A stretch of DNA of 64,000 bases from Myxococcales bacterium. GTDB lineage: Bacteria; Myxococcota_A; Polyangia; Palsa-1104; JAEUJZ01. Of the stretch, positions 1 through 48,562 are shown in pieces. Under the pieces are notes generated by a model. It saw nothing but the letters and a program-made list of their open reading frames with translations. It did not search any database and had not been told where the DNA came from. Position 1 is the stretch's first letter. Every line of letters starts with the position of its first letter. Position numbers and translations under genes: made by a program. The stretch is taken from NCBI GenBank assembly GCA_016794365.1, contig JAEUKB010000085.1, positions 19,658 through 83,657 of the forward strand. The letters run 5' to 3'.

Positions 1-717
1 GACCCGTCCGTAGCGCGGCTTGATTCCCGCTTCGTTGAGCCGTCGCGCAATCTCCGCCATTCCGACGCCTTCGCGATACCAGCCGATCGCCGTCTCAAGC
101 CAAGGATGCGTCACCGGATCGGGTACAAGCTTCGTCAGCTTGCCTTCTTTCACGACGGTAAATCCAAACGGCACCTTTCCGTAATATCCGCCTTGATCGA
201 CGATGTGGCGGATCGTTGCCTTGACGCGCTCGCTCGTGTTCTGCCTTTCGATCTGCCCGATGATCGCGAGGAACGGCAGAAGCATCTTCGACACAGGCTC
301 GAACGTGTTGATCCCGTCGCGAATCGCTACCAAATTGCAGCCGCATGGCTCGAGCAAATCTTCGTTGATGTTGCACAGATCGCGCAGCGAGCGAGTGAGC
401 CGATCCAGCTTGGTCACGACGACTGCCGCGATCTCACCGTCGGACTTCTTGATCTCGCGCATCATCCGCTGAAACGCGGGCCGATCGGTATTCTTCGCCG
501 AGAAGCCGCCATCTACGAAGACCTCCGCGATCACCCAACCGCGATCGGCTGCGTACTGCTGGATCGCCGCGCGCTGGTCATCCAGCGAAAGCCCTTGCGC
601 CACCTGCATGTCAGTGGACACGCGACAGTAGCCAAAGACGCGAACAATGTGCGCTGTGTTACGTAGTGTGGCTTGCTGGTTCTGATTGCGATAAGTAGAG
701 CGGCTGTCAGTCTTCAT
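1..717 (-). CDS. Large serine recombinase (resolvase/invertase N-terminal catalytic domain plus recombinase domain). The 5' part is complete; the C-terminus runs off the window's left edge.
   Basis: Reverse-strand translation from the ATG at 715-717 reads without a stop to position 1: MKTDSRSTYRNQNQQATLRNTAHIVRVFGYCRVSTDMQVAQGLSLDDQRAAIQQYAADRGWVIAEVFVDGGFSAKNTDRPAFQRMMREIKKSDGEIAAVVVTKLDRLTRSLRDLCNINEDLLEPCGCNLVAIRDGINTFEPVSKMLLPF... The YCRVSTDMQ block is the catalytic-Ser motif of serine recombinases. The later GGYYGKVPFGF...GIKPRYGR stretch matches the recombinase domain of large serine integrases. A ggaga Shine-Dalgarno sits about 8 nt upstream. It is absent from the ORF track only because no stop codon lies inside the window. 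Confidence 0.85.
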   Translation of the reverse strand, partial: MKTDSRSTYRNQNQQATLRNTAHIVRVFGYCRVSTDMQVAQGLSLDDQRAAIQQYAADRGWVIAEVFVDGGFSAKNTDRPAFQRMMREIKKSDGEIAAVVVTKLDRLTRSLRDLCNINEDLLEPCGCNLVAIRDGINTFEPVSKMLLPFLAIIGQIERQNTSERVKATIRHIVDQGGYYGKVPFGFTVVKEGKLTKLVPDPVTHPWLETAIGWYREGVGMAEIARRLNEAGIKPRYGRV

Positions 718-743
718 GGTCTGTTTCTCCGTCGCTGTGACCT

Positions 744-1199
744 TTAGTGGTCAACCTGGAAACAGACTCTAGAAATTACGTAATCATCGCGGTGGACGAT
801 GCCCTTCGCGTGCGCTGCGGCTAAGGAGTCAGCGAGCTGCCAGGTAAGCGAGACGACATCCCCCACAGGCAATGGTCCACGCGCAGCGCTGATGCGACGA
901 GCCAGGGACTCGCCATTGAGAAGCTCCATCACGAGGTAGGCAGCACCGTCCGGGAGCTGCCCAAAGTCCGAGATTTGAACCAGGCCAGGGTGCTCGACAA
1001 CATTGACCGCCCGAGCTTCATTAAAGAAGCGCGAGGTGAACTGGGCGTCCTTGGCGAAGGATGACAGGAGTACCTTGATCGCTACCCGACGACCAATGGC
1101 CTCGTGCAAGGCTTCATAGACGGCTCCCATGCCGCCTTCCCCCAGCTTGCGAACGACCTTATACGGCCCGATCTTTTCAGGAATCTCAGGACCAGTCAC
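744..1199 (-). pseudogene. Ser/Thr protein kinase gene, N-terminal fragment only, abruptly truncated right after the HRD catalytic-loop motif
   Basis: Glycine loop GEGGMGAVYEA, beta3 Lys in VAIKVL, and an N-lobe through IVHRD. The sequence then reads DYVISRVCFQVDH-stop with no LKPxN, DFG or APE. No kinase-like continuation appears in either of the other two frames past the junction. Confidence 0.65.
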
Positions 1200-1386
1200 T
1201 ATCGACCCATCACCTGAATACTGCCGCTCATGTTACTATGAACGCGGTGTGATGTGCAATGCTGGTCTGTGGGTAGACCTACAACCGCACGCTACGGGTT
1301 CTATCACGGGGGCTGTTATGTGTGGGGCTCGATGAAGGCAGAGCCCGAAGGATGAACAACCAGCGGCATGTCGCTAGCTAGATACG

Positions 1387-2094
1387 CTACTTCCGACGGA
1401 GACAAGCGAAGACACTGATTTCTTTTTCAACCCAATCACTTTCCAGCAGTACCGCATCGGCCCCCTCGAAACAGCGGGCAAGTCCTGTGGGTGAAAAGCG
1501 GAAATAGTCTTCAGGAGAAGGGTGGTACACCCAGGAAAAAACCGTCGCGAGATACAGGAATGCTCCAGGCTTTGCCAATCGCACGAAGTTGCGACAAAAC
1601 GTGAAGGGATCGCTGACGTGCTCCAGTGTATCGAAAGACACCACCACATCGAAACGACCTTCGATGCGAGCAACGTCCGCTTCGACCAGCAGGTCGCCCT
1701 TGATATCCAGTCCGCTGCCGGTTGTCTCCGCCGTGAAGCCCGGATCTAGAAACCGGAGATTCGGAAGGATCGAGAGCAATGGGTTGCGCGTAACGACTAC
1801 GTTCAACTCGGCCTCTGGCAGCGGCGCACCGAGAAATCGAAGGAACCGAAAAGCGGCCTCCTTGTCTTGGGCGACCGGCACGCGCTCATTGGTCTGAAGA
1901 TACACCTTCTCATTGCCGCCAACGTCGATGCACGACTTGTCCTTGGTTTCAACTCCGTGGCGCGTCACCGCATCGAGGAAATGATCTATCGCCTTCTGTC
2001 GCATGGTCGGAGCGGCAAAATCGCACTGCCAGCCTGTTCTGTCCAGGCTGAACTTTCCTGATTGATGCCCCCCATTCGTCGGCAACGTCTCCAT
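1387..2094 (-). CDS. Class I SAM-dependent methyltransferase (Methyltransf_11/12-like)
   Basis: Motif I-like DVGGNEKVYLQ, post-I acidic residue, FDVVVSFDTLEHVSDP (motif II/III) and LAKPGAFLYL (motif IV region). Confidence 0.7.
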   Translation of the reverse strand: METLPTNGGHQSGKFSLDRTGWQCDFAAPTMRQKAIDHFLDAVTRHGVETKDKSCIDVGGNEKVYLQTNERVPVAQDKEAAFRFLRFLGAPLPEAELNVVVTRNPLLSILPNLRFLDPGFTAETTGSGLDIKGDLLVEADVARIEGRFDVVVSFDTLEHVSDPFTFCRNFVRLAKPGAFLYLATVFSWVYHPSPEDYFRFSPTGLARCFEGADAVLLESDWVEKEISVFACLRRK

Positions 2095-2195
2095 GAGCGT
2101 GTCGTTGGCCAGCAGCGCTGGGCTACATCGGAAAGCGTTCAGTCAACAGCCATTCGGGTTGACAACAACCGCAGAGCGGGAGTATCCCGTGCGCC

Positions 2196-3452
2196 ATGCG
2201 ATTGGGATCTATTCAGCCATCTAATATGCTTAAACAAGCGCTCCACGCACCAGTTGGTCGGACCGTTGATTATCTTAAGCGCATACAGACGATATTGGAG
2301 CGATACCAGACCAAATGGGAAGATTCCGTGAAAAACGATGAACCCAGTGCGACAGTGCAGCCCATCGTCGCCAGTGCCGAAAATGAAATCGCTTCGCATC
2401 AATTGACAATCAAGCCCAAAGTCGTTCAGCCGATTTTAAACACCAATCAAAATCGCACCAGTCAAGCCATCTTTCAAGAGAATCCCATTTTGCAGTCGCA
2501 TGATCTTAAACATTCAAACATAACATACGAATCACTCGGCATTGATCCGGTGATATTTTATAGTGGAAAATTTGCTGGCTCTCCATGTCGAGTTAACTTT
2601 CTGGCCGATCCTGCCAACCGTTTTGATATCGAGTACTCGCGCGCACGATTTCTGGTCAAGAATATCCCGTCGGGTGGACTGGTGCTTGACTTGGGCTGTG
2701 GCTCAGGACCGTTCGGGCAGACACTTCGTGACGAATGCCAGGTCAAAGCACTCATCGGAGTTGACATGGACCCAGTCTGCGTCCGTCTGGCTGAGCAGAC
2801 CTACGACCAAGCAGAAGTCTTCCAAATCGGAGAAGCCCTACCATTTCCAGATGCAACGTTTGACGCTGTGTTCTCAGTGGATTTCTTCGGACATGTAGAA
2901 TTCCGGCACAAGAACCGTCTCATCGAGGAAATACATCGCGTTACCAAGCCCGGCGGGATTTCTGTCCACATTATTGAATCGATGAAACTTGATTATCATA
3001 AGATTCAGCCAGGAAATATCGATGACCCCAGAATGAAATATATTCACATGGAAGGACATGTCGGGATTGAGCCTGCTGATATTGTCTCGGTGAGATGGTT
3101 AAGATGCTTTCAATCCGTAGTAGTTGAAAACGCTTTTCTTTTCCCATTTTATCCATCTTCCACCTACGCAGCTCTGACAGATACCTTTGAAGAGCCACTC
3201 CGTCGTCTAATTGAAGGCTTTAGCCCACAGGAAAAGCGTGCAGCAAATATCTGTTTGGGATTTGTCTGTGACTTCCTGATGGAACAGATTCGTCAGCGGG
3301 ATCCGACGCTCTTGTTGCCCGACGACAGCGAGGAATTGCTGTTTCATCACAAAGAACATGAAGCTCGCTCGGTAGAGGAGCAATCGCCTGGCAACGCCCG
3401 AGACATTCTTCGCCACGGAAGTGGGCTGATTCACTTGGTTGCTCGACGCTAG
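2196..3452 (+). CDS. Class I SAM-dependent methyltransferase with an N-terminal extension of about 140 aa; the true start is uncertain
   Basis: VLDLGCGSGPFG (motif I), ALIGVDMD, FDAVFSVDFFGHVE and VTKPGGISVHII. The region is visibly lower in GC than its neighbours, for example AT-rich runs around 2400-2580. Confidence 0.65.
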   Translation: MRLGSIQPSNMLKQALHAPVGRTVDYLKRIQTILERYQTKWEDSVKNDEPSATVQPIVASAENEIASHQLTIKPKVVQPILNTNQNRTSQAIFQENPILQSHDLKHSNITYESLGIDPVIFYSGKFAGSPCRVNFLADPANRFDIEYSRARFLVKNIPSGGLVLDLGCGSGPFGQTLRDECQVKALIGVDMDPVCVRLAEQTYDQAEVFQIGEALPFPDATFDAVFSVDFFGHVEFRHKNRLIEEIHRVTKPGGISVHIIESMKLDYHKIQPGNIDDPRMKYIHMEGHVGIEPADIVSVRWLRCFQSVVVENAFLFPFYPSSTYAALTDTFEEPLRRLIEGFSPQEKRAANICLGFVCDFLMEQIRQRDPTLLLPDDSEELLFHHKEHEARSVEEQSPGNARDILRHGSGLIHLVARR

Positions 3453-3562
3453 CAACTGTGCCGAGTGGCTGCGATGCGGACAAGGATCTGCGCTTGCCGA
3501 CCGCGTTACCTTGCCACGAAGCGGGCAGCGCGCCCTCCCACCTGCGTGATATCATCAGCAAG

Positions 3563-4396
3563 ATGAAGAAGTGCGCGGGCGTTGTGGGAGCGCTCCTGGT
3601 GATCAGCCTGAGCATGGGATGCGGAGATCTATGGTCCCCGTTCCTAGCGTATCGAGAGGGGGAATTCCGACCTGGGCTGGTGCTCATTCCCAAAGGAGGC
3701 TACACGATGGGAAGTCCGACCGGGGAGTCTGCCCGAGGCAGTGACGAAGCGCCGCATAAGGTGACGCTGACGACGGACTTCTGGATGGCGGAAAGTGAAG
3801 TGACTCAGAGGCAGTATCGGAACCTGATGGGAAGCACTCCGTCGAATTTCAAGGGAGACGATCTGCCAGTGGAGCAAGTGAGCTGGCTCGATGCAGTGAC
3901 GTACTGCAACGCGCTGTCAGAGAAAGAGAACCTTCCGCCGTGTTACCAGATAAGTGGAGAGACGGTGGGATGGGCGGACGGAGTGAAATGTAAGGGGTAT
4001 CGGTTGCCGACGGAAGCGGAGTGGGAATACGCAGCGAACCCTGTGACGCCACCGAGAACGGTGTACGCGGGCTCAGACACGGTGGATGGGGTGGCGTGGT
4101 ACTACACAAACTCTGCAAACACGACGCATGCAGTGAAGACGAAGACGGCAAACGGAAGAGGACTGTACGATTTAAGCGGAAACGTGTGGGAGTGGGTGTG
4201 GGACTGGTATCAGGGGAACTATGAAGCGCTGCCGTCCACTGATCCGCTCGGCCCCGCGACCGGCGCGTTCCGGGTGATCCGTGGCGGCGCGTGGCTCATC
4301 ACCGCGCCCGCCGCGCGCATTGCGCAGCGCTCCAACGCCACGCCTACGATTCGCAGCAACGCCCTCGGCTTTCGTATCGTGAGGTCTTACCCTTAG
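3563..4396 (+). CDS. Formylglycine-generating enzyme (FGE-sulfatase/SUMF1) family domain lipoprotein
   Basis: MKKCAGVVGALLVISLSMGC is a lipoprotein signal with a lipobox. FGE-family motifs present: YRLPTEAEWEYAA, GNVWEWVWDWY, RVIRGGAW and LGFRIVRS. The start was chosen at the internal ATG (3563) that begins the signal peptide; the ORF track start at 3458 is less likely. Confidence 0.8.
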   Translation: MKKCAGVVGALLVISLSMGCGDLWSPFLAYREGEFRPGLVLIPKGGYTMGSPTGESARGSDEAPHKVTLTTDFWMAESEVTQRQYRNLMGSTPSNFKGDDLPVEQVSWLDAVTYCNALSEKENLPPCYQISGETVGWADGVKCKGYRLPTEAEWEYAANPVTPPRTVYAGSDTVDGVAWYYTNSANTTHAVKTKTANGRGLYDLSGNVWEWVWDWYQGNYEALPSTDPLGPATGAFRVIRGGAWLITAPAARIAQRSNATPTIRSNALGFRIVRSYP

Positions 4397-4718
4397 CAGT
4401 TTTACCCTCTTACCCTCTGCAAAGGGCGAAGCCCAATCTGGGGCGAAGCCAATCTCGTCCAGTCCCGAATCAAGCCGAGCCAAAGAAGGGACGCCATCGT
4501 GAACACCAGCCAATGCAGAAGGAACGCCGATCGCCAGGATTTCCAGGCGCGCTCGTTATCGGCAGGAAACACGTATCCATCCAGGTTCTCGACCCACTGC
4601 TCTGGCACGTCGCTTCGGCTACGCAACGGACAGGGTTCAAACAAACCGAATCACGCTTCGTCCGTGATCCAGAAATTGTAGCCTAGCTCGCACCGTTCTA
4701 AATCCCTGGTTCCCCCAC

Positions 4719-5504
4719 TCAACTAGCCCAGCGCACTTCCCGACCTCTCTGCGACGGCATCGGGAAGTTTGATGCCCATTTCTCGACGGACGTGATCTTA
4801 GCTGGCTTCAAGTCTCGGTGGAGGACGCCTTGGGTGTGGGCGCTGTGGACGGCTTGGGCGATCTGGGAAACGAGGAGAACTTTCTGTTCCAGGCTCAGGC
4901 GACGCAGGTGCAGCGGCTGACCGTCGATGAACTCCATCGCAATGTAGGGCTGCGACTGGAACTCTCCGACCTCGAAGACCTTGCAGATGTTGTTGTGGTC
5001 CAGTCGGGCTTGCGCGCGCGCTTCTTGCAGCAGACGCTCCGCCGCGTCGGGACTGGGAACGCGCAGGAACTTGAGCGCAACCAGTCTGCCCAGCTTGCGA
5101 TCACGCGCAAGAAACACCGAGCCCATTCCGCCTTGTCCCAGCGGTCGCACGATCTCGTAGCGATCCCACGACTTGAGCGGATCAGGAACCGCGCCTGGTA
5201 GTGAAACCAAGAGCAGTTCAGAGCCTGTCTGCCGGGGTGCAGAGTTTCCATGCAGCGTCGGTGCGCGCGCCGGATCCATGGTCGGAGCCGTGGCTTCATC
5301 GATGGATAACGGAGCGGAATTCGAAGCGGAGTTCGGAGCCGCATCACGTCCAGACGCACGCTCAGACCCAGGACCAGAAGGAGTGGAAGTAGGAGTGGGA
5401 GAAGGAGTGGGAGAGGATCGATCAGACTGCGCGCTTGCCACCAAGACATGTTCACACAGGTCTTGATGCTTCAGCCAGTCGCTACACAGAGATGACGACG
5501 GCAC
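4719..5504 (-). pseudogene. Ser/Thr protein kinase pseudogene, frameshifted and decayed after the catalytic loop
   Basis: LGQGGMGSVFLA, VALKFL, IAMEFIDGQPL and VLHRDLKPA, after which the annotated frame reads KITSVEKWAS...stop. The -1 frame over the same nucleotides reads EMGIKLPDAVAERSG, a kinase subdomain VI/VII-like remnant with DFG degraded to DAV. There is a long low-complexity Pro/Ser/Ala-rich N-terminus. Further decayed remnants may extend down to about 4400. Confidence 0.6.
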
Positions 5505-11912: not shown

Positions 11913-13721
11913 ATGTCCCAAGAGCAGAAGGAAGCCGAAAAGCTCATCGGTCAGGTGTTAAACGGAACCTACCGACTCGAGCAGCTCCTGGTGACGGGCG
12001 GAATGGGCGCAGTGTTTCGTGCCCGACACGTCCGCACCGGCGGCGTCTGCGCCATCAAGGTGCTGCATCAGCGGGCCGCGATGCAGGGCGACCTGAGCGA
12101 GCGCTTTCAAGACGAAGCCCGCATCATCGCAGGACTCCGTCACCCCAACATCGTTCAGGTGAGCGATCTCGACCGAGACAAGTCGGGCATGGCGTTCATC
12201 GTGATGGAGCTGCTCGAAGGCGAAGATCTGCAAGATCGGATCGAGCGCACGGGCAGTGTTCCTCTCGATGAAGCGCTGCAAATCACCAGGCAGGTTTCGT
12301 CGGCACTTCACGCCGCTCACCAGCGCGGGGTCATCCATCGCGATCTGAAGCCGCGCAACATCTTCTTGGCTCGCCACGAAGAAAACGGCGTGCTGACGCA
12401 GACCGCCAAAGTGATCGACTTCGGCGTGTCGAAAGTGCCAAGGCCCGCCGACAAAGCAACGCGCGATCTGCTGGTGCTCGGGACGCCACGCTACATGGCC
12501 CCCGAAGGCGCGATGGGGCAAAACTCGCAGATCGACGGACGATCTGATCAGTGGTCAGTCGGCGTCATCTTGTATCGCATGCTGTCGGGAAAGCTGCCGT
12601 TTGATCACGAAAATGTGATCGATCTGTTCAAGCAGGTCATCAACGAGCAGCCGACGCCGATTGAGCAGCTTGTTCCGACGGTTCCGCCCTATGTGGCAGC
12701 CGCGATCAAGCGCTCGCTGGCCAAAAAGAAGGAAGAGCGCTTTGCGACGATGCTCGACTTCCTTCAGGCGCTGGAACCGCCGCCCGCTGCACCGCCGTTT
12801 TCGTGGAAGCGGAGCCTGACGTTTGGGCTGCTCGGTGCGAGCTTGGCTGGACTTGTCGTGATGCCACTTCTTGTGCGCGAGCTTCAGGGCAAAAAGCGCA
12901 GCGGTCAGGTCGCACAGCTTCTGGTGCAAGCCGATGAAGCGCTGATGGACGAGCGCTGGGACGAAGCGATCAAGCTGTCGAGCCAGGTTCTGACGGTGCC
13001 GGGACAGGCTCCGTACGTGGCAGCAGCGGCGGAAAACATCAAGCGTCGCGTCGAAAAAGGACAGAAGATCTCGGGCGATGCGCAGCAGATCATGCAGGCG
13101 CTGGCCAACAAAGACTACGACGGAGCGCTCAGTCGCAATCGTGATCTACCGCCTCGGACCAGCTTCCGCATCACCGCGCAGCAGCACTACGATCTGCTTC
13201 AGCAGCTTGTGATTGCCTATCACTTGCAGCAAGCCGAAGCGGAGCGCTCACTCGGCAAGTGCGACAAGATCGAACCGCACGTCGCCAAGATCTTGGAGCT
13301 GGTGCCCGATCACGTCGATGCACTGACGGCACGCTGGCGACCTTGTGCGCTCATCACGGGTCAGCCGCCGGGAGCAAAGAAGCTGGCAGGCTATCCGCCG
13401 CTGCGCGATCTGGCCGGAAAGCCGCTCGGCCTGGCGGGAGAGCACGACAAAGCGCACAACAACTTCGCGGAAATCGATCGCTCGCTGCGTGATGCCCAGA
13501 TTGCGCACCAGCACGGCGAGTACATGAAAGCGGTGGCGCTGGCTCATACCGCAACGTCGGTGCCGATTCGCAGCTTGCCCGCGTGGCGCATCGTCGGTGT
13601 GTCAGCGTGTCATCTCAAGAGCCCCGAGATCCTGGAATACGTCGTTCCGCACCTCGATCTGGCGTCGAAAGAGTTCGTCCGCAGTCGCTGCACCGCTGCG
13701 GGCTACAAAGTCTCGTTCTAG
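11913..13721 (+). CDS. Ser/Thr protein kinase (Hanks type) with a TM segment and a C-terminal extracytoplasmic/TPR-like region
   Basis: GGMGAVFRA, AIKVL, HRDLKPRNIFL, DFGVSK, GTPRYMAPE, and TM helix LTFGLLGASLAGLVVMPLLV. Confidence 0.9.
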   Translation: MSQEQKEAEKLIGQVLNGTYRLEQLLVTGGMGAVFRARHVRTGGVCAIKVLHQRAAMQGDLSERFQDEARIIAGLRHPNIVQVSDLDRDKSGMAFIVMELLEGEDLQDRIERTGSVPLDEALQITRQVSSALHAAHQRGVIHRDLKPRNIFLARHEENGVLTQTAKVIDFGVSKVPRPADKATRDLLVLGTPRYMAPEGAMGQNSQIDGRSDQWSVGVILYRMLSGKLPFDHENVIDLFKQVINEQPTPIEQLVPTVPPYVAAAIKRSLAKKKEERFATMLDFLQALEPPPAAPPFSWKRSLTFGLLGASLAGLVVMPLLVRELQGKKRSGQVAQLLVQADEALMDERWDEAIKLSSQVLTVPGQAPYVAAAAENIKRRVEKGQKISGDAQQIMQALANKDYDGALSRNRDLPPRTSFRITAQQHYDLLQQLVIAYHLQQAEAERSLGKCDKIEPHVAKILELVPDHVDALTARWRPCALITGQPPGAKKLAGYPPLRDLAGKPLGLAGEHDKAHNNFAEIDRSLRDAQIAHQHGEYMKAVALAHTATSVPIRSLPAWRIVGVSACHLKSPEILEYVVPHLDLASKEFVRSRCTAAGYKVSF

Positions 13722-45184: not shown

Positions 45185-48100
45185 TTGGCAGCCGTGCCAG
45201 ACTTACCGCAGCTGCAAGGGACATTTACGCCGCCGTCGCAGCTCGATGAGTTCCAAGTCGAGCGACCGCTCGGACGCGGAGCCAATGGCCAGGTCTACTT
45301 GGCGCGTGACACCGTGCTGGATCGTCCCGTTGCGCTGAAGTTTCTGAGCGGACGACGGCTGAGTCGTCATGCGCGACGGCGCTTTTTGGTCGAAGCACGA
45401 GCGATTGCGCGGCTGAAGCATCCCAACGTCGTCACGGTTTATCGCTTCGGAGAGTTTCGCGGCCGTCCGTTTCTGGTGTCGGAATACGTCTCGGGTCACA
45501 CGCTGGCGCGACTGATCAAGCCGGTTCCGTGGCAGCGCGCGCTGGAAATCGGCGCGGAGCTGGCCAAAGGACTCGCCGCAGCCCACGAGCAAGGGGTGTT
45601 GCACCGCGACATCAAGCCGGGCAACGTGATGATGTCTGACGCGTCAGAGGTCAAGCTGCTCGACTTTGGACTGGCCAAGCTGTCGGGTCTGCTCGTCGAG
45701 CCAGACTGGGCCGTTCAAGCATCCAGCTCTGGCGAGCAAGCGGTGGCACCGGTACCCAAAGACGATGCGCTACAGCCGACGATGGAGGCTGATCAAGGGC
45801 CCAAAGCAGTGACGCCATCGGATGAGCTACCATCGGTCACGCTGCCAGCGCAGCACGTCGAAAAAAAAGCCAAAGACAAAGCCAAGCCAGACAAAGACAC
45901 GTCAACGACAGCACCACCTTTACAGAATCGATCAAATGAGCCGCTTCTGGAACCGCTCACTCGAGCAGGAACGGTGCTGGGAACGCCCGCGTATATGGCA
46001 CCGGAAGCGTGGCAAGGACTGCCAGCGACTCCGGCGGCGGATGTCTATAGCTTGGGCGCGCTGCTCTATGAGCTGTGTACTGGAAAGCCGCCGCACTACA
46101 GCTCGCAGGTATCGGAGATCGAGCACGGAGCCATTTACGAAGACATTCCGTCGCTGTCGCAAGTGGTTACAGGCATCGACAGCGCGTTTGCGTCCATCGT
46201 CGATCAGTGTCTGCGTCGCAATCCAGCGGACAGACCGCAGTCGGGAACCGAGGTTCGACAAGCGCTCGATGCGCTGATTCATCCGTCGCTGTCATCGCTT
46301 TGGCGCAAGGCGCTTCGTCAGCACTGGATGCTGGTTTTGCTGGCCGGGCTGCTGCTTATCGCGGGCAGTGCCAGCAGCAGCTATTTTTTGGCGCAGCGCG
46401 CGCTTCGTCAGCAAGAAAGTCCGGTCTTGAAGGTGCGCAAGGTGGTCGCGGTGCTCGGGCTGGCTGCCGAACAAGAGTCGCAGAGCAATGCCTGGTATTC
46501 GACGGCGATGGCCGAGCTGCTCAGTCGCGAAATGGCGCTGGGAGAGCGCGTGCGTGTGGTGGCAACCCGCAGCGTGCAGCAGATGATCCAAGAGTCGCAG
46601 CTTCGCGAGGCCATGCTGTTCGATCCGGGCACGCTCCAGGTGGTGCGGAAGCGACTCGATGCCGATGTGGTGATCGGTGGATCGTATCTGTTTCGCACGG
46701 CGGACAAGCGACGGCTTCAGCTCGCGGTCGTCGCGCAAGATGCAGTCAGTGGCTTGGTCTTGGCGCGCAGCGTCATCGACGGATCCGATTCTGAAATGCT
46801 ATCGATGGTGGCGCACGCGGCGCAGCACATTCGCCAGCAGCTCGGTGTGGGCGACGGAATGACGGTGCGACGGACCGGACTGCGGGTGGCCAATGCCGAT
46901 ACGCTCAAGACGTACGGTGAAGCACTGCGCGAGCTGCGAGGCTTTCGTCTGCGTCGCGCCGGAGAGCTTTTGACTCGTGTTGTGACATCCGATCCCGACT
47001 TTTCCCCGGCGTACGAAGCGCTGGCGACGGTGTGGCGCGAGCTGGGCTACGACGTAAAGTCAAGAGAAGTGCTCAAGCACGCGATCGAGCACACCACCGG
47101 ACTACAGCGTGAAGAGAGACTGCTGCTCGAAGCGCGGTATCGAGAAGCGCAAAAAGACTGGGATCAAGCGTTCGCGACCTACCAGACGCTGATGCGGCTG
47201 TTTCCAGACAATCCCGAATATCCGCTGGCACTGGGAGAAGCGCAGCGCTCTGCGGGCAAACAAAAAGAAGCGCTGGCGACGCTGATGCAGCTTCAACGCG
47301 AGCACGCGCATGCTCAGCTTGATCCGCGCATTGATGCTGCGATTGCGCGCGCGCTCGAAGACAACGGCGATTTCCGGGCGGCACACAGTCGCTATCAGGT
47401 TGCCATCGAAAAGAGCCGGGCAAGTGGAGCGCTGCTGCTCGCTGCGCGCTGTCTGGTGTCGCAAGCGTTCGTGAAAAAATATCTGGGAGAAGCGAGCGCT
47501 GTCCTTCCCAACTTGGAACAAGCGCAGGAGCTGTTCCGTCGCTCCGGTGCGCAGCTTGATCTGGCGGATGCGCTGGCCGCCAAAGGCTGGATGTATCGCG
47601 ATCAAGGCGCAGCGCAGCAAGCGTTTGCGATGTTTCAAGATGCGCTCTCGATCTTGATTGAGTCGGGAAGTGGCAACGGAACTGCGGTGCATCTGTCAAA
47701 CTTTGCGCTGCTCCTGTTGCGAACTGGAGACTTGCCACTTGCGACGGCACGCGCGGAAGCCAGCTTGGTGCTCGCGCGCGAGGTCGATTACAAAGAAGCG
47801 GCTGCGTCGGCGTACTTGGTGCTGGGCTGGATTGCGCGAGAGCGAGGACAGCTCGATCTGGTCAAGCAGCGCATCGCGCAAGCAGAGCGCATCGTCCGCG
47901 AGCTGGATGACGACTACTTAAGTGCGTGGCTCAACTGTCTGGTCGCGGAGTCACTGATTTGGGAAGGAGAGCTGTCCGACGCCAAACAGAAACATGAGCT
48001 GGCACTGGCGCTGCGCTCGCAAGTCGGAAGCAGTGGTTTTGTGGCGGAAAGTCACATCGCGCTTGGACACTTGGCGCTGCTCGATCAGCGTCCTAGCGAT

Positions 48101-48562
48101 GCGATTGTGCATGCCGAAAAAGCGGTTCCGCTGCTGCAATCGGACGGACAGCTTGATGGCGAAGTCTGGGCGCTGGCGATCTTGAGTGCGGCGCACGCAG
48201 CGCTGTCTCACAAAGAAGAAGCGCTGGCGCTGGCTACGAAAGTCTCGTCGCTCAGCCATGGGAATCCGTATCTGTCTACGCGATCCCTCGTTCTGTGTAT
48301 GTTGGCGCGGACTTACGCATCACTATCTTCTACGCAAGACATGGAGCGCGTGCTTGCGCAGATTCAACAAGCGCTCGATGATCCTCGGTTTTCAGAGCTA
48401 ACCCTCAGACGCTTCGAGCTGCGTCTGGCCCGTGCGCGACTTTTGCTACAGCTGGGACAAGCCACGGAAGCACACGCAGCACTCCGCATCCTGGCGCAGG
48501 AAGCGAAGCAGGCAGGGTTCTTGCTTACAGTCACGGAAGCACATCAGCTTCTTTCGCTGTAG
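45185..48562 (+). CDS. Ser/Thr protein kinase with a TM segment and a large C-terminal TPR-repeat domain; the first codon is TTG
   Basis: LGRGANGQVYLA, VALKFL, HRDIKPGNVMM, DFGLAK, GTPAYMAPE, and TM HWMLVLLAGLLLIAGSASSSYFL. About 650 aa of TPR-like helical repeats follow. Confidence 0.85.
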   Translation: MAAVPDLPQLQGTFTPPSQLDEFQVERPLGRGANGQVYLARDTVLDRPVALKFLSGRRLSRHARRRFLVEARAIARLKHPNVVTVYRFGEFRGRPFLVSEYVSGHTLARLIKPVPWQRALEIGAELAKGLAAAHEQGVLHRDIKPGNVMMSDASEVKLLDFGLAKLSGLLVEPDWAVQASSSGEQAVAPVPKDDALQPTMEADQGPKAVTPSDELPSVTLPAQHVEKKAKDKAKPDKDTSTTAPPLQNRSNEPLLEPLTRAGTVLGTPAYMAPEAWQGLPATPAADVYSLGALLYELCTGKPPHYSSQVSEIEHGAIYEDIPSLSQVVTGIDSAFASIVDQCLRRNPADRPQSGTEVRQALDALIHPSLSSLWRKALRQHWMLVLLAGLLLIAGSASSSYFLAQRALRQQESPVLKVRKVVAVLGLAAEQESQSNAWYSTAMAELLSREMALGERVRVVATRSVQQMIQESQLREAMLFDPGTLQVVRKRLDADVVIGGSYLFRTADKRRLQLAVVAQDAVSGLVLARSVIDGSDSEMLSMVAHAAQHIRQQLGVGDGMTVRRTGLRVANADTLKTYGEALRELRGFRLRRAGELLTRVVTSDPDFSPAYEALATVWRELGYDVKSREVLKHAIEHTTGLQREERLLLEARYREAQKDWDQAFATYQTLMRLFPDNPEYPLALGEAQRSAGKQKEALATLMQLQREHAHAQLDPRIDAAIARALEDNGDFRAAHSRYQVAIEKSRASGALLLAARCLVSQAFVKKYLGEASAVLPNLEQAQELFRRSGAQLDLADALAAKGWMYRDQGAAQQAFAMFQDALSILIESGSGNGTAVHLSNFALLLLRTGDLPLATARAEASLVLAREVDYKEAAASAYLVLGWIARERGQLDLVKQRIAQAERIVRELDDDYLSAWLNCLVAESLIWEGELSDAKQKHELALALRSQVGSSGFVAESHIALGHLALLDQRPSDAIVHAEKAVPLLQSDGQLDGEVWALAILSAAHAALSHKEEALALATKVSSLSHGNPYLSTRSLVLCMLARTYASLSSTQDMERVLAQIQQALDDPRFSELTLRRFELRLARARLLLQLGQATEAHAALRILAQEAKQAGFLLTVTEAHQLLSL

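Follow-up and report, generated by a model that had tools for sequence, protein, structure and literature searches.

In the Clostridia, the serine recombinases TnpX (Tn4451) and TndX (Tn5397) move cargo-carrying elements into many sites without target duplication, by way of a circular intermediate in which the two ends are joined. TnpX and TndX use GA as the crossover dinucleotide. Phage integrases of the large serine recombinase (LSR) family, such as Bxb1, PhiC31, TP901-1 and A118/LI, have one target each; the integrase gene adjoins the attachment (att) site and a coding sequence is split on integration, as when A118 integrates in comK. LSRs are typically 450-700 aa long, and their zinc ribbon, with its embedded coiled coil, reads the outer att motifs and sets directionality. 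A 'multi-targeting LSR' clade, commonly with DUF4368, was described by Durrant et al. 2022 (PMC10083194), in the text of which the word 'kinase' is absent. Here we describe an element at one edge of a 64,000-nt stretch of DNA (64 kb; referred to simply as the window, by which the whole stretch and not any one feature is meant). Positions 1-786 of the window are very probably the recombinase-proximal end of an integrative mobile element that was inserted in a Ser/Thr kinase gene between the codons for HRD and LKP, and that belongs to a family homing to this kinase motif.

Like the phage integrases, the recombinase of this element is encoded beside the att site, and a coding sequence is split. 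Like TnpX and TndX, the family occupies many targets (20 kinases), with GA at every junction and with the ends joined in five contigs, as judged by sequence comparison, where a joined end may represent either a circle or a tandem copy. TnpX, TndX and the multi-targeting LSRs, however, are proteins of ~530-710 aa with a zinc ribbon, a coiled coil and often DUF4368, whereas the recombinase studied here has 372 aa and three helical modules, and is neither large and multidomain nor provided with DUF4368. The targets of multi-targeting LSRs are short, degenerate or AT-rich motifs, whereas the target here is a protein-coding motif of one gene family. The principle of a multi-targeting serine recombinase element is known; the protein architecture, and a target that codes for a protein motif shared by a paralogous gene family, appear to be new.

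In its uncut form the interrupted gene encodes a 516-aa Ser/Thr kinase, and the break lies within the catalytic loop. A first-pass annotation of the window had proposed a serine recombinase gene leaving the window leftward, next to a kinase open reading frame (ORF) that keeps its N-lobe through HRD, and both were found as proposed (Table 1); the product of the kinase ORF is exactly MBL8635841.1. This ORF ends with ...GIVHRD^DYVISRVCFQVDH-stop (the caret marks the crossover here and below), the HRD codons being at 792-794 (H), 789-791 (R) and 786-788 (D). The tail (A/D)YVISRVCFQVDH-stop was also found after different kinases in L010 and L011. When the neighbouring methyltransferase (1387-2094) was used as an exact-protein query, six metagenome contigs were obtained. 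Metagenome contig L003 carries, in this order, the methyltransferase of the window, an intact 516-aa kinase gene and a TPR gene. L003 is 99.7% identical to the window across 1.5 kb and diverges past window base 787, i.e., from 786 on; the empty site reads CGC GAC CTC AAG CCC, as against CGC GA^T GAT TAC GTA ATT in the window. The ends of contigs L002, L004 and L006 fall precisely on the junction, which is typical of a branch point in an assembly graph, and the junction of the window was seen again in L007, which comes from an independent sample. As an intact allele with 99.7% identity exists, mutational decay of the kinase was rejected, and the site-specific insertion that had been proposed in its place was borne out by this comparison with the uninterrupted gene. 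A shufflon or invertase exchanging kinase halves was also rejected, since the recombinase is not flanked by kinase fragments in inverted orientation and the gene at the empty site is simply intact.

The missing 3' half of the kinase gene had been predicted to lie beyond the far end of the element, and it was found in the same orientation and on the same contig, as P0122 (MBL8635824.1; 381 aa, beginning with MTDLKPDNVML...DFG...SPE), which is exactly the remaining part of the kinase. MBL8635824.1 and MBL8635841.1 are both encoded on one 349,365-bp contig of a metagenome-assembled genome (MAG; 'Myxococcales bacterium'), and 17 accession numbers separate them, which leaves 16 proteins between the halves. 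By this accession arithmetic, the element of the window probably has 16 genes and a length of ~12-18 kb. The ORFs of both halves are intact and have 99-100% identity to the allele without interruption. The start of P0122, MTDLKP, is encoded by TTG ACA GAC CTC AAG CCC, and agrees with a fusion of the target to the right end ...GGTTGACAGA that L033, L094 and L095 have.

When the sites were aligned (attB, CGC GAC CTC; window, CGC GA^T GAT; far junction, TTG ACA GA^C CTC), GA was the only sequence that the empty site, the two junctions and the joined ends share. Of 20 left junctions, 10 have A or G as the base next after GA. As such a codon would encode Glu, this base is derived from the element. 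The right junctions read ...(T)TGACnGA(C/T)^CTnAAGCC and have a normal Asp codon. We infer that GA is the dinucleotide of the staggered cut, which would fit the 2-bp stagger of serine recombinases; on these alignments the exchange at the Asp codon would have been conservative, with a 2-bp central dinucleotide and no target-site duplication, as in LSRs.

Table 1. Positions of the features of the element end, the interrupted kinase and related loci (window coordinates unless a contig is named).
Feature	Position	Strand	Remarks
Serine recombinase gene, codons 1-239 of 372	1-717	-	Stop-free 239-aa translation, MKTDSRS...; continues left of the window
Catalytic motif YCRVSTDMQ	604-630	-	GYCRVSTDMQ is residues 29-38; catalytic Ser34
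Recombinase-proximal element end	718-786	-	69 nt from crossover to ATG; putative attP-derived half-site and recombinase leader
Leader hairpin	719-767	-	5' arm GTCTGTTTCC (758-767) pairs with GGAGAAACAGAC (719-730) by RNAfold
Shine-Dalgarno GGAG	727-730	-	Inside the 3' arm GGAGAAACAGAC
Conserved box CGACGGAG	727-734	-	In the leader
Inner hairpin TGACC/GGTCA	749-753 / 738-742	-	Within the leader
Kinase N-lobe ORF	744-1199	-	Pkinase profile positions 1-123 of 263, E 2e-21 (Pfam); ends ...GIVHRD
Element-encoded tail of the truncated kinase ORF	744-786	-	Third base of Asp138, then DYVISRVCFQVDH and stop
Palindrome ATTACGTAAT	775-784		Element-derived, 2 nt inside the junction; not the crossover
Putative 2-bp crossover GA	787-788	-	First two bases of the HRD Asp codon; TC on the + strand
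Kinase-derived fragment	787-1199	-	Residues 1-137 and GA of Asp138; 99.7% nt identity to the intact L003 gene
Different element at the same kinase site	L001:11298-11651, L005:3008-3051, L008:8901-10124, L009:1-130		
Tyrosine integrase with serine recombinase	L036:8592-11071, L037:28-2068, L042:306-2867		

A scan of GTDB species representatives for homologues of the recombinase gave 80 loci, with several copies per genome, and all but one of them came from Myxococcota-type MAGs. The targets were examined for the 29 loci with a recombinase of 45% or higher identity to that of the window, by tblastn with kinase N- and C-lobes and by reading the junctions directly. At 21 of the 29 the recombinase adjoins a kinase gene broken at HRD, and at a further 5 the right end of the element is joined directly to its left end. 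Twenty left flanks belong to 20 different Polyangia kinases, all with ...AHxxG(I/V)(I/V)HR(D) and all cut at the same GA; the consensus of the target is ...GGnATCnTnCAyCGnGA^yCTnAAGCC. Nearly identical elements occur in different kinases. The elements of L010 and L011 have 96% nt identity to each other, their recombinases are 99-100% identical in aa sequence to that of the window over the 239 residues present there, and their left ends are that of the window save for the 3 nt adjoining GA. The L011 kinase, however, has 68% nt identity to that of the window. The junctions are ...GIVHRD CAC CGC GA^C GCT TAC GTA ATT in L011 and ...GIIHRD CAC AGA GA^C GCT TAC in L010. In all clades the distance and orientation of the recombinase gene to the junction are fixed.

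The family is multicopy in the Polyangia (Myxococcota) and behaves as a target-specific transposon. A genome has dozens to hundreds of kinase paralogues, and landing sites that are individually dispensable are therefore many. Four kinase genes or fragments lie in the 64-kb window itself. Two intact kinases (11913-13721 and 45185-48562) have the target motif in unoccupied form, as CATCGCGATCTGAAGCC at 12336-12352 (+) and CACCGCGACATCAAGCC at 45602-45618 (+); potential landing sites are therefore frequent.

The full-length recombinase (P0127) has 372 aa, and its residues 1-239 are 100% identical to the translation from the window. The 239-aa part gave Pfam matches to Resolvase (E 2.3e-36) and to the beginning of Recombinase (PF07508). 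In the full-length protein Resolvase matched residues 27-177 with 124 bits, and PF07508 scored 66.9 bits against a cut-off of 21.1, split into two stretches. R32, S34, D105, R106 and R109 are invariant in 64 homologues, in keeping with the catalytic domain of the LSR family, and the catalytic domain of TP901-1 matched with E 1.6e-20. An AlphaFold model built from 64 homologues (mean predicted local distance difference test score, pLDDT, 82.8) has a catalytic domain, a long alpha-E helix (141-174), a recombinase-domain-like beta-hairpin (186-199) and, after these, three 3-helix modules (204-253, 270-317 and 327-371). By Pfam, the model and Foldseek, PF07508 follows alpha-E, as it does in LSRs. 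The best structure and sequence matches of the catalytic and recombinase domains (Foldseek, phmmer) were Bxb1, TP901-1, PhiC31 and A118-type integrases, and the Foldseek alignments with Bxb1, A118-type and PhiC31 integrases extended over 240-320 columns.

No Pfam domain beyond Resolvase and Recombinase was found in the 372-aa protein, neither Zn_ribbon_recom nor DUF4368. No Cys is conserved in the C-terminal half across the homologues (64 in the conservation count), and a zinc ribbon or coiled coil (PF13408) was not found in the AlphaFold model. The recombinase is an LSR-clade enzyme from which one defining feature of the family, the zinc ribbon with its coiled coil, is missing. The name 'large serine recombinase' given at first pass holds for its LSR-type catalytic and recombinase domains, but not in the sense of a typical phage integrase of 450-700 aa. 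NCBIfam gave only matches below threshold, including CcrB, XisF and IS607 (recomb_XisF, 82.4 against a cut-off of 375; transpos_IS607, 47.8 against a cut-off of 110).

Joined ends of the attP type were found in contigs L023, L030, L035, L094 and L095. In L023 a right end of the L024 type (93%) is joined to a left end of the L024 type (91%) at ...ATAGACGGA^CCGCC. L094 and L095 were obtained by scanning metagenomes for the joint predicted for an element of the window type. The joint of L095 reads ...GGCGACGGGGATGTAGGTTTGTGGTTGACAGA^TACTTACGTAATTTCTAGAGTCTG... and is followed by a recombinase 97.5% identical to that of the window; its left end is 96.8% identical to window 597-783. From their sequence the joined ends may be either excised circles or tandem copies. 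If they are excised circles, as we take them to be, excision would restore the kinase precisely.

Such precise restoration is known from skin/SpoIVCA (sigK) and the XisF fdxN element, where an LSR-family recombinase also acts at a split host gene, and the element of the window might likewise be a host-domesticated programmed rearrangement, excised on cue (e.g., in myxobacterial development) and turning the kinase on. Conservative recombination at a 2-bp core would exactly restore the reading frame of the two kinase halves, which are intact and 99-100% identical to the uninterrupted allele; the joined ends can be taken as excision or circularisation within the family, and CcrB and XisF are among the nearest named families by sequence. 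However, the skin and XisF elements are single-copy, vertically kept and developmentally regulated, whereas the present family is multicopy, varies in cargo and hits many different kinases within one genome. Its occupancy is polymorphic among nearly identical strains, in which the site is empty, holds the element of the window or holds a different element. The NCBIfam XisF score (82, cut-off 375) does not make the recombinase an XisF/SpoIVCA equivalog, the insertions are not a single conserved one, and there is no tie between excision and a host signal. We therefore consider programmed excision improbable.

Three relatives are complete, with both kinase halves in frame. L033 (9.4 kb) carries two XRE-type regulators, L024 (6.7 kb) carries an S-adenosylmethionine (SAM) methyltransferase and a subtilase, and L026 (1.34 kb), which is inserted in the opposite orientation, has the recombinase only. 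The relatives thus range from 1.3 kb to at least 9.4 kb with cargo; the recombinase of the window is no short resolvase without a flanking element, and a cargo-free 1.3-kb relative (L026) does exist. L095 (14 kb) carries a retron-Ec67-type reverse transcriptase (RT), an OLD-like ATPase/TOPRIM nuclease, and DnaJ-like, ParB-like and M23 proteins. The RT matched the NCBIfam family of retron Ec67 RT/endonucleases with 720 bits against a cut-off of 450, and adjoins an 850-aa OLD-like AAA_15/TOPRIM protein (L095:804-5559, the same as L097:7036-11761). From its sequence, this pair appears to be anti-phage defence cargo. The 100% cluster of the L095 retron RT has a single member, and no close copy comes from the MAG of the window.

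An ordinary temperate prophage or integrative and conjugative element, with a phage-type large serine integrase and one dedicated attB within this kinase gene, would also have its integrase beside att, a split target gene and, with ~16 genes between the halves, the layout of a small prophage or island. Against this stand the 372-aa recombinase without zinc ribbon or coiled coil, the presence of the same element in other kinases, the 20 different kinases cut at the same GA, and the 1.34-kb relative without any cargo. Moreover, no phage structural genes (capsid, terminase, tail, lysis) were found in L024, L033 and L095, no conjugation genes in the complete relatives, and no relative of the recombinase above 37% identity among the 2.9 million viral contigs of IMG/VR. 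Hence a prophage, one of the two forms suggested at first pass, is very unlikely, while its other suggestion, an integrative element, stands. A plasmid search gave no close relative, and the literature searched held neither a close relative nor a description of kinase-targeted elements.

Lastly, the recombinase could be a passenger, the breaks at HRD having come from homologous or illegitimate recombination among the many kinase paralogues in their most conserved stretch or from another enzyme such as a tyrosine integrase, and an unrelated element within 1-2 bp of the same site in JGI samples and a second truncated kinase (4719-5504) with another N-lobe in L001/L002, switched within ~10 nt of HRD as in paralogue exchange, would suit this; but it is hardly credible in view of the fixed position of the recombinase at the junctions of all clades, a minimal element that holds the recombinase alone, the lack of a tyrosine integrase in L024, L026 and L033, and junctions with only GA in common, which fits the 2-bp crossover of a serine recombinase but would not be expected from homologous exchange.

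Among compact elements, those of the IS607 family of insertion sequences (IS) resemble the IS-sized L026 in having a serine recombinase, no inverted repeats and no target duplication. According to PMC4058570 and PMC6188088, the DNA-binding domain of IS607 TnpA is N-terminal to the catalytic domain and there is almost no target specificity. The recombinase of the window, by contrast, does not have the IS607 order of a MerR-like HTH ahead of a C-terminal catalytic domain: its catalytic domain comes first, and its target specificity is high. Functionally conserved and/or multicopy targets, by which landing sites are assured, are also used by inteins and homing endonucleases, group II introns, the rDNA-specific R2, and IS that target repetitive extragenic palindromes (REP) or attC; their chemistry is different from the conservative serine recombination of the present family. 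As the element of the window undergoes no splicing, either of RNA or of protein, the host gene is inactivated by every insertion.

In the mechanism that we propose for the motif-homing element, the 372-aa protein would synapse the site formed by the joined ends with DNA encoding ...G(I/V)(I/V)HRDLKP...; both sites would be cut at GA, rotated and religated, leaving the C-terminal half of the kinase beyond the other end of the element. Excision would be the reverse reaction and would restore the kinase precisely, with the site CGCGACCTCAAG. A single segment would be expected, with ...TTGACAGA(C/T)^CTCAAGCCCGACAAC at one of its ends and CACCGCGA^TGATTACGTAAT at the opposite end, and the joint of the circle to read TTGACAGA-TGATTACGTAAT. 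The target may have been picked for its conservation and for its very many dispensable copies.

Several points weigh against this reading. Three of the 29 loci (L018, L019 and L021) have no adjoining kinase fragment. The size of the window's element is taken from accession numbering, and the sequence of its right end from a protein start. That the recombinase catalysed the insertion is concluded from comparison of sequences. The att halves have no clear dyad symmetry (by inspection, none that is convincing was found between the right end, CGACGG-N22-GA, and the left end, GA-N3-TTACGTAA...), and the protein is without the domain by which LSRs recognise att sites and set directionality. The joined ends could be tandem or nested copies, and L030 looks nested. 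The empty-site allele has 5 single-nucleotide differences, so that a site never occupied and one from which the element was excised look alike. In sister strains a different element, with a tyrosine integrase, sits within 1-2 bp of the same site; therefore the site may attract insertions, or be recombinogenic, beyond the recombinase of the window.

It may be noted that L030 has, at 2440-2530, two right-end-like units (...AATTGACAGA and CCACCGACGG-N20-TTGACAGA) ahead of the left end of one element. This arrangement suggests insertion into the end of another element, or tandem arrays at such an end.

If confirmed, the motif-homing reading would mean that the attachment site of a serine recombinase is set by the catalytic motif of a protein family and not by one locus. 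With dispensable landing sites numbering dozens to hundreds in each genome, the element would then be a natural case of the 'evolved multi-targeting' idea for LSRs. A minimal LSR architecture, without zinc ribbon and coiled coil and yet apparently site-specific, would bear on att recognition, directionality and the engineering of integrases. The same elements, which carry defence systems, would be a force that turns off, and possibly restores or recombines, parts of the very large kinase repertoires of myxobacteria. The sequence coding for HRDLKP is also conserved in the kinases of eukaryotes; if such enzymes were put to use in other genomes, the preference for this target would therefore matter, whether as a risk or as a tool.

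The first-pass annotation had put the palindrome ATTACGTAAT, which is located where it was reported, at the junction, and had placed the recombinase 65 bp from the break. Kinase similarity is indeed lost abruptly, as had been noted, but not exactly at the palindrome: L003 diverges after 787, which puts the break 2 nt outside the palindrome. From the break to the recombinase ATG there are 69 nt (718-786). As att core or crossover centre the palindrome was rejected, being inside the element and not conserved; the crossover would be GA at 787-788, and the 8-bp core TTACGTAA is kept only in the closest relatives. This core occurs once in the 64 kb, with ~0.01-0.4 occurrences expected (an estimate from base composition). 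The longer CTTACGTAAT was found in the window, L010, L011, L012, L016, L033, L094 and L095. The counterpart of the palindrome is CTTACGAAAAAAC in L013/L022 and CTTACTAAAAAAA in L020, and remoter clades have unrelated AT-rich sequence. From these alignments the palindrome appears to be a clade-specific end or half-site sequence, conserved only among the closest relatives. The end as a whole (718-786) is 97-100% identical in L007, L010, L011 and L095, which adjoin other sequences.

The 3 nt after GA (window 783-786) vary among copies that are otherwise identical or nearly so for the next 60-70 nt. The triplet is TGA in the window, and CGC, CAC, AGC, AAA or TAC were also seen (copies L010, L011, L012, L014, L016, L033, L094 and L095), a local hypervariability beside the putative cut.

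Between the junction and the recombinase gene lies a leader that can fold into a hairpin (Table 1). In minimum-energy folds by RNAfold, the arms are paired in 11-12 of 13 homologous leaders, and compensatory changes between lineages give the arm pairs CUUGUUUCC/GGAGAACAAG, UUGUCUCCG/CGGAGACAA and CGUCUCUCUCCG/CGGAGAAGAGACG. When a quick alignment of the 13 leaders was submitted to RNAalifold, the stem masking the Shine-Dalgarno sequence was not recovered, and only a trivial 5-bp stem appeared; the former is seen by per-sequence folding. The recombinase and the interrupted kinase have the same direction of transcription. On these models, the hairpin would mask the ribosome-binding site of the recombinase against read-through from the kinase promoter. 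Read-through shields of this kind occur in several IS elements. Alternatively, the arms could be protein-binding sites.

Homologues with 31-35% identity to the recombinase (L036-L091; e.g., L052:8203-9879, L064:7574-9883 and L059:8580-9878) belong to other compact multicopy families. A 1.26-kb unit in L045, L052 and L055 of one genome is 91-93% identical between copies. The recombinase-proximal ends of these homologues lie within TIG and FG-GAP-repeat genes, at ...(V/L)(A/G)D^A-stop in 9 loci and at ...DVNG^(V/D)-stop in 5 loci; another repeat protein was hit at ...GDGGTIL^stop or ...GSDGIIL^stop in 2 loci. FG-GAP_3 was present in 7 of the 10 flanking ORFs tested with Pfam. The right junctions of these families were looked for and not found. 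These observations suggest that homing to motifs is a habit common to the recombinase superfamily.

It is somewhat likely that these families, together with that of the window, make up a hitherto undescribed Polyangia superfamily of elements with compact (~350-390 aa) serine recombinases, in which each clade homes to the conserved motif codons of a large paralogous or repeat family: kinase HRD^LKP; FG-GAP (A/G)D^xNGDG and DVNG^DG; and GDGGTIL^ in the other repeat protein. If so, the redundancy of host motifs would serve as a distributed safe harbour for elements ranging from IS-like forms to carriers of defence genes. Signalling genes may be reversibly knocked out by them, and may be shuffled. 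At least one unrelated element, with a tyrosine integrase, would have arrived by convergence at the same 20 bp within the kinase catalytic loop.

That element splits the same kinase 1-2 bp from the junction of the window, in two JGI samples and one Logan run. Its flanks are 100% identical to window 788-3804, and its site is the equivalent of window 786-797. The left junction is GTCCACCGCG^GGTGAACG (L001, L005) and the right one ...TTCTCGACGGAAAGTTAGTCCACCGCG^ACCTCAAG (L008, L009). A 10-bp direct repeat, GTCCACCGCG, is present at both ends, and perfect 12-bp inverted repeats, TTCTCGACGGAA/TTCCGTCGAGAA, lie near each. The element is longer than 10 kb; on its C-lobe side a tyrosine integrase (Phage_integrase) lies 110 bp in, and HTH_31 and DUF488 genes are present as well. 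Unrelated elements thus seem to share the catalytic-loop codons as an insertion hotspot. In three loci (Table 1), a tyrosine integrase ~30% identical to that of L008 lies divergently and directly upstream of a serine recombinase of 33% identity; the pair may be a recurrent two-recombinase module.

In several FG-GAP-targeting elements a conserved hairpin, GGCC(A/C)CCGTCGT...ACGACGG(T/A)GGCC, followed by AAGTTCCCCGT(A/T)GTGAG, lies 3' of the recombinase (L045:11140-11200, L049:11150-11200, and ~100 nt past the recombinase stop in L067 and L070). The CGACGG box is found in this 3' hairpin, and near both ends of the kinase-targeting elements (window 729-734) and of the tyrosine-integrase element.

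The second truncated kinase of the window, at 4719-5504 (-), reads ...GVLHRDLKPAKIT and is followed by decayed remnants of the DFG region. In L001:7119-7376 and L002:1-200, the N-portion of a different kinase (...QGIVHRDIKPAKIT) is fused to downstream sequence identical to that of this second kinase. The switch occurs between the Asp codon and AAGCC, at about window 4806, within about 10 nt of HRD and not at GA. The upstream side in L001 matches the part of the tyrosine-integrase element next to its integrase (L008:8084-8855) with 90% identity. The switch could be a paralogue exchange or another element end.

The region between the two kinase fragments (window 1200-4800) has a G+C content of 0.50-0.56, compared with ~0.60, and encodes two SAM methyltransferases and an FGE-sulfatase-type protein; it may be island-like. 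L003 leaves the sequence of the window at 2317, 30 nt from the end of the L003 contig, possibly as an assembly artefact.

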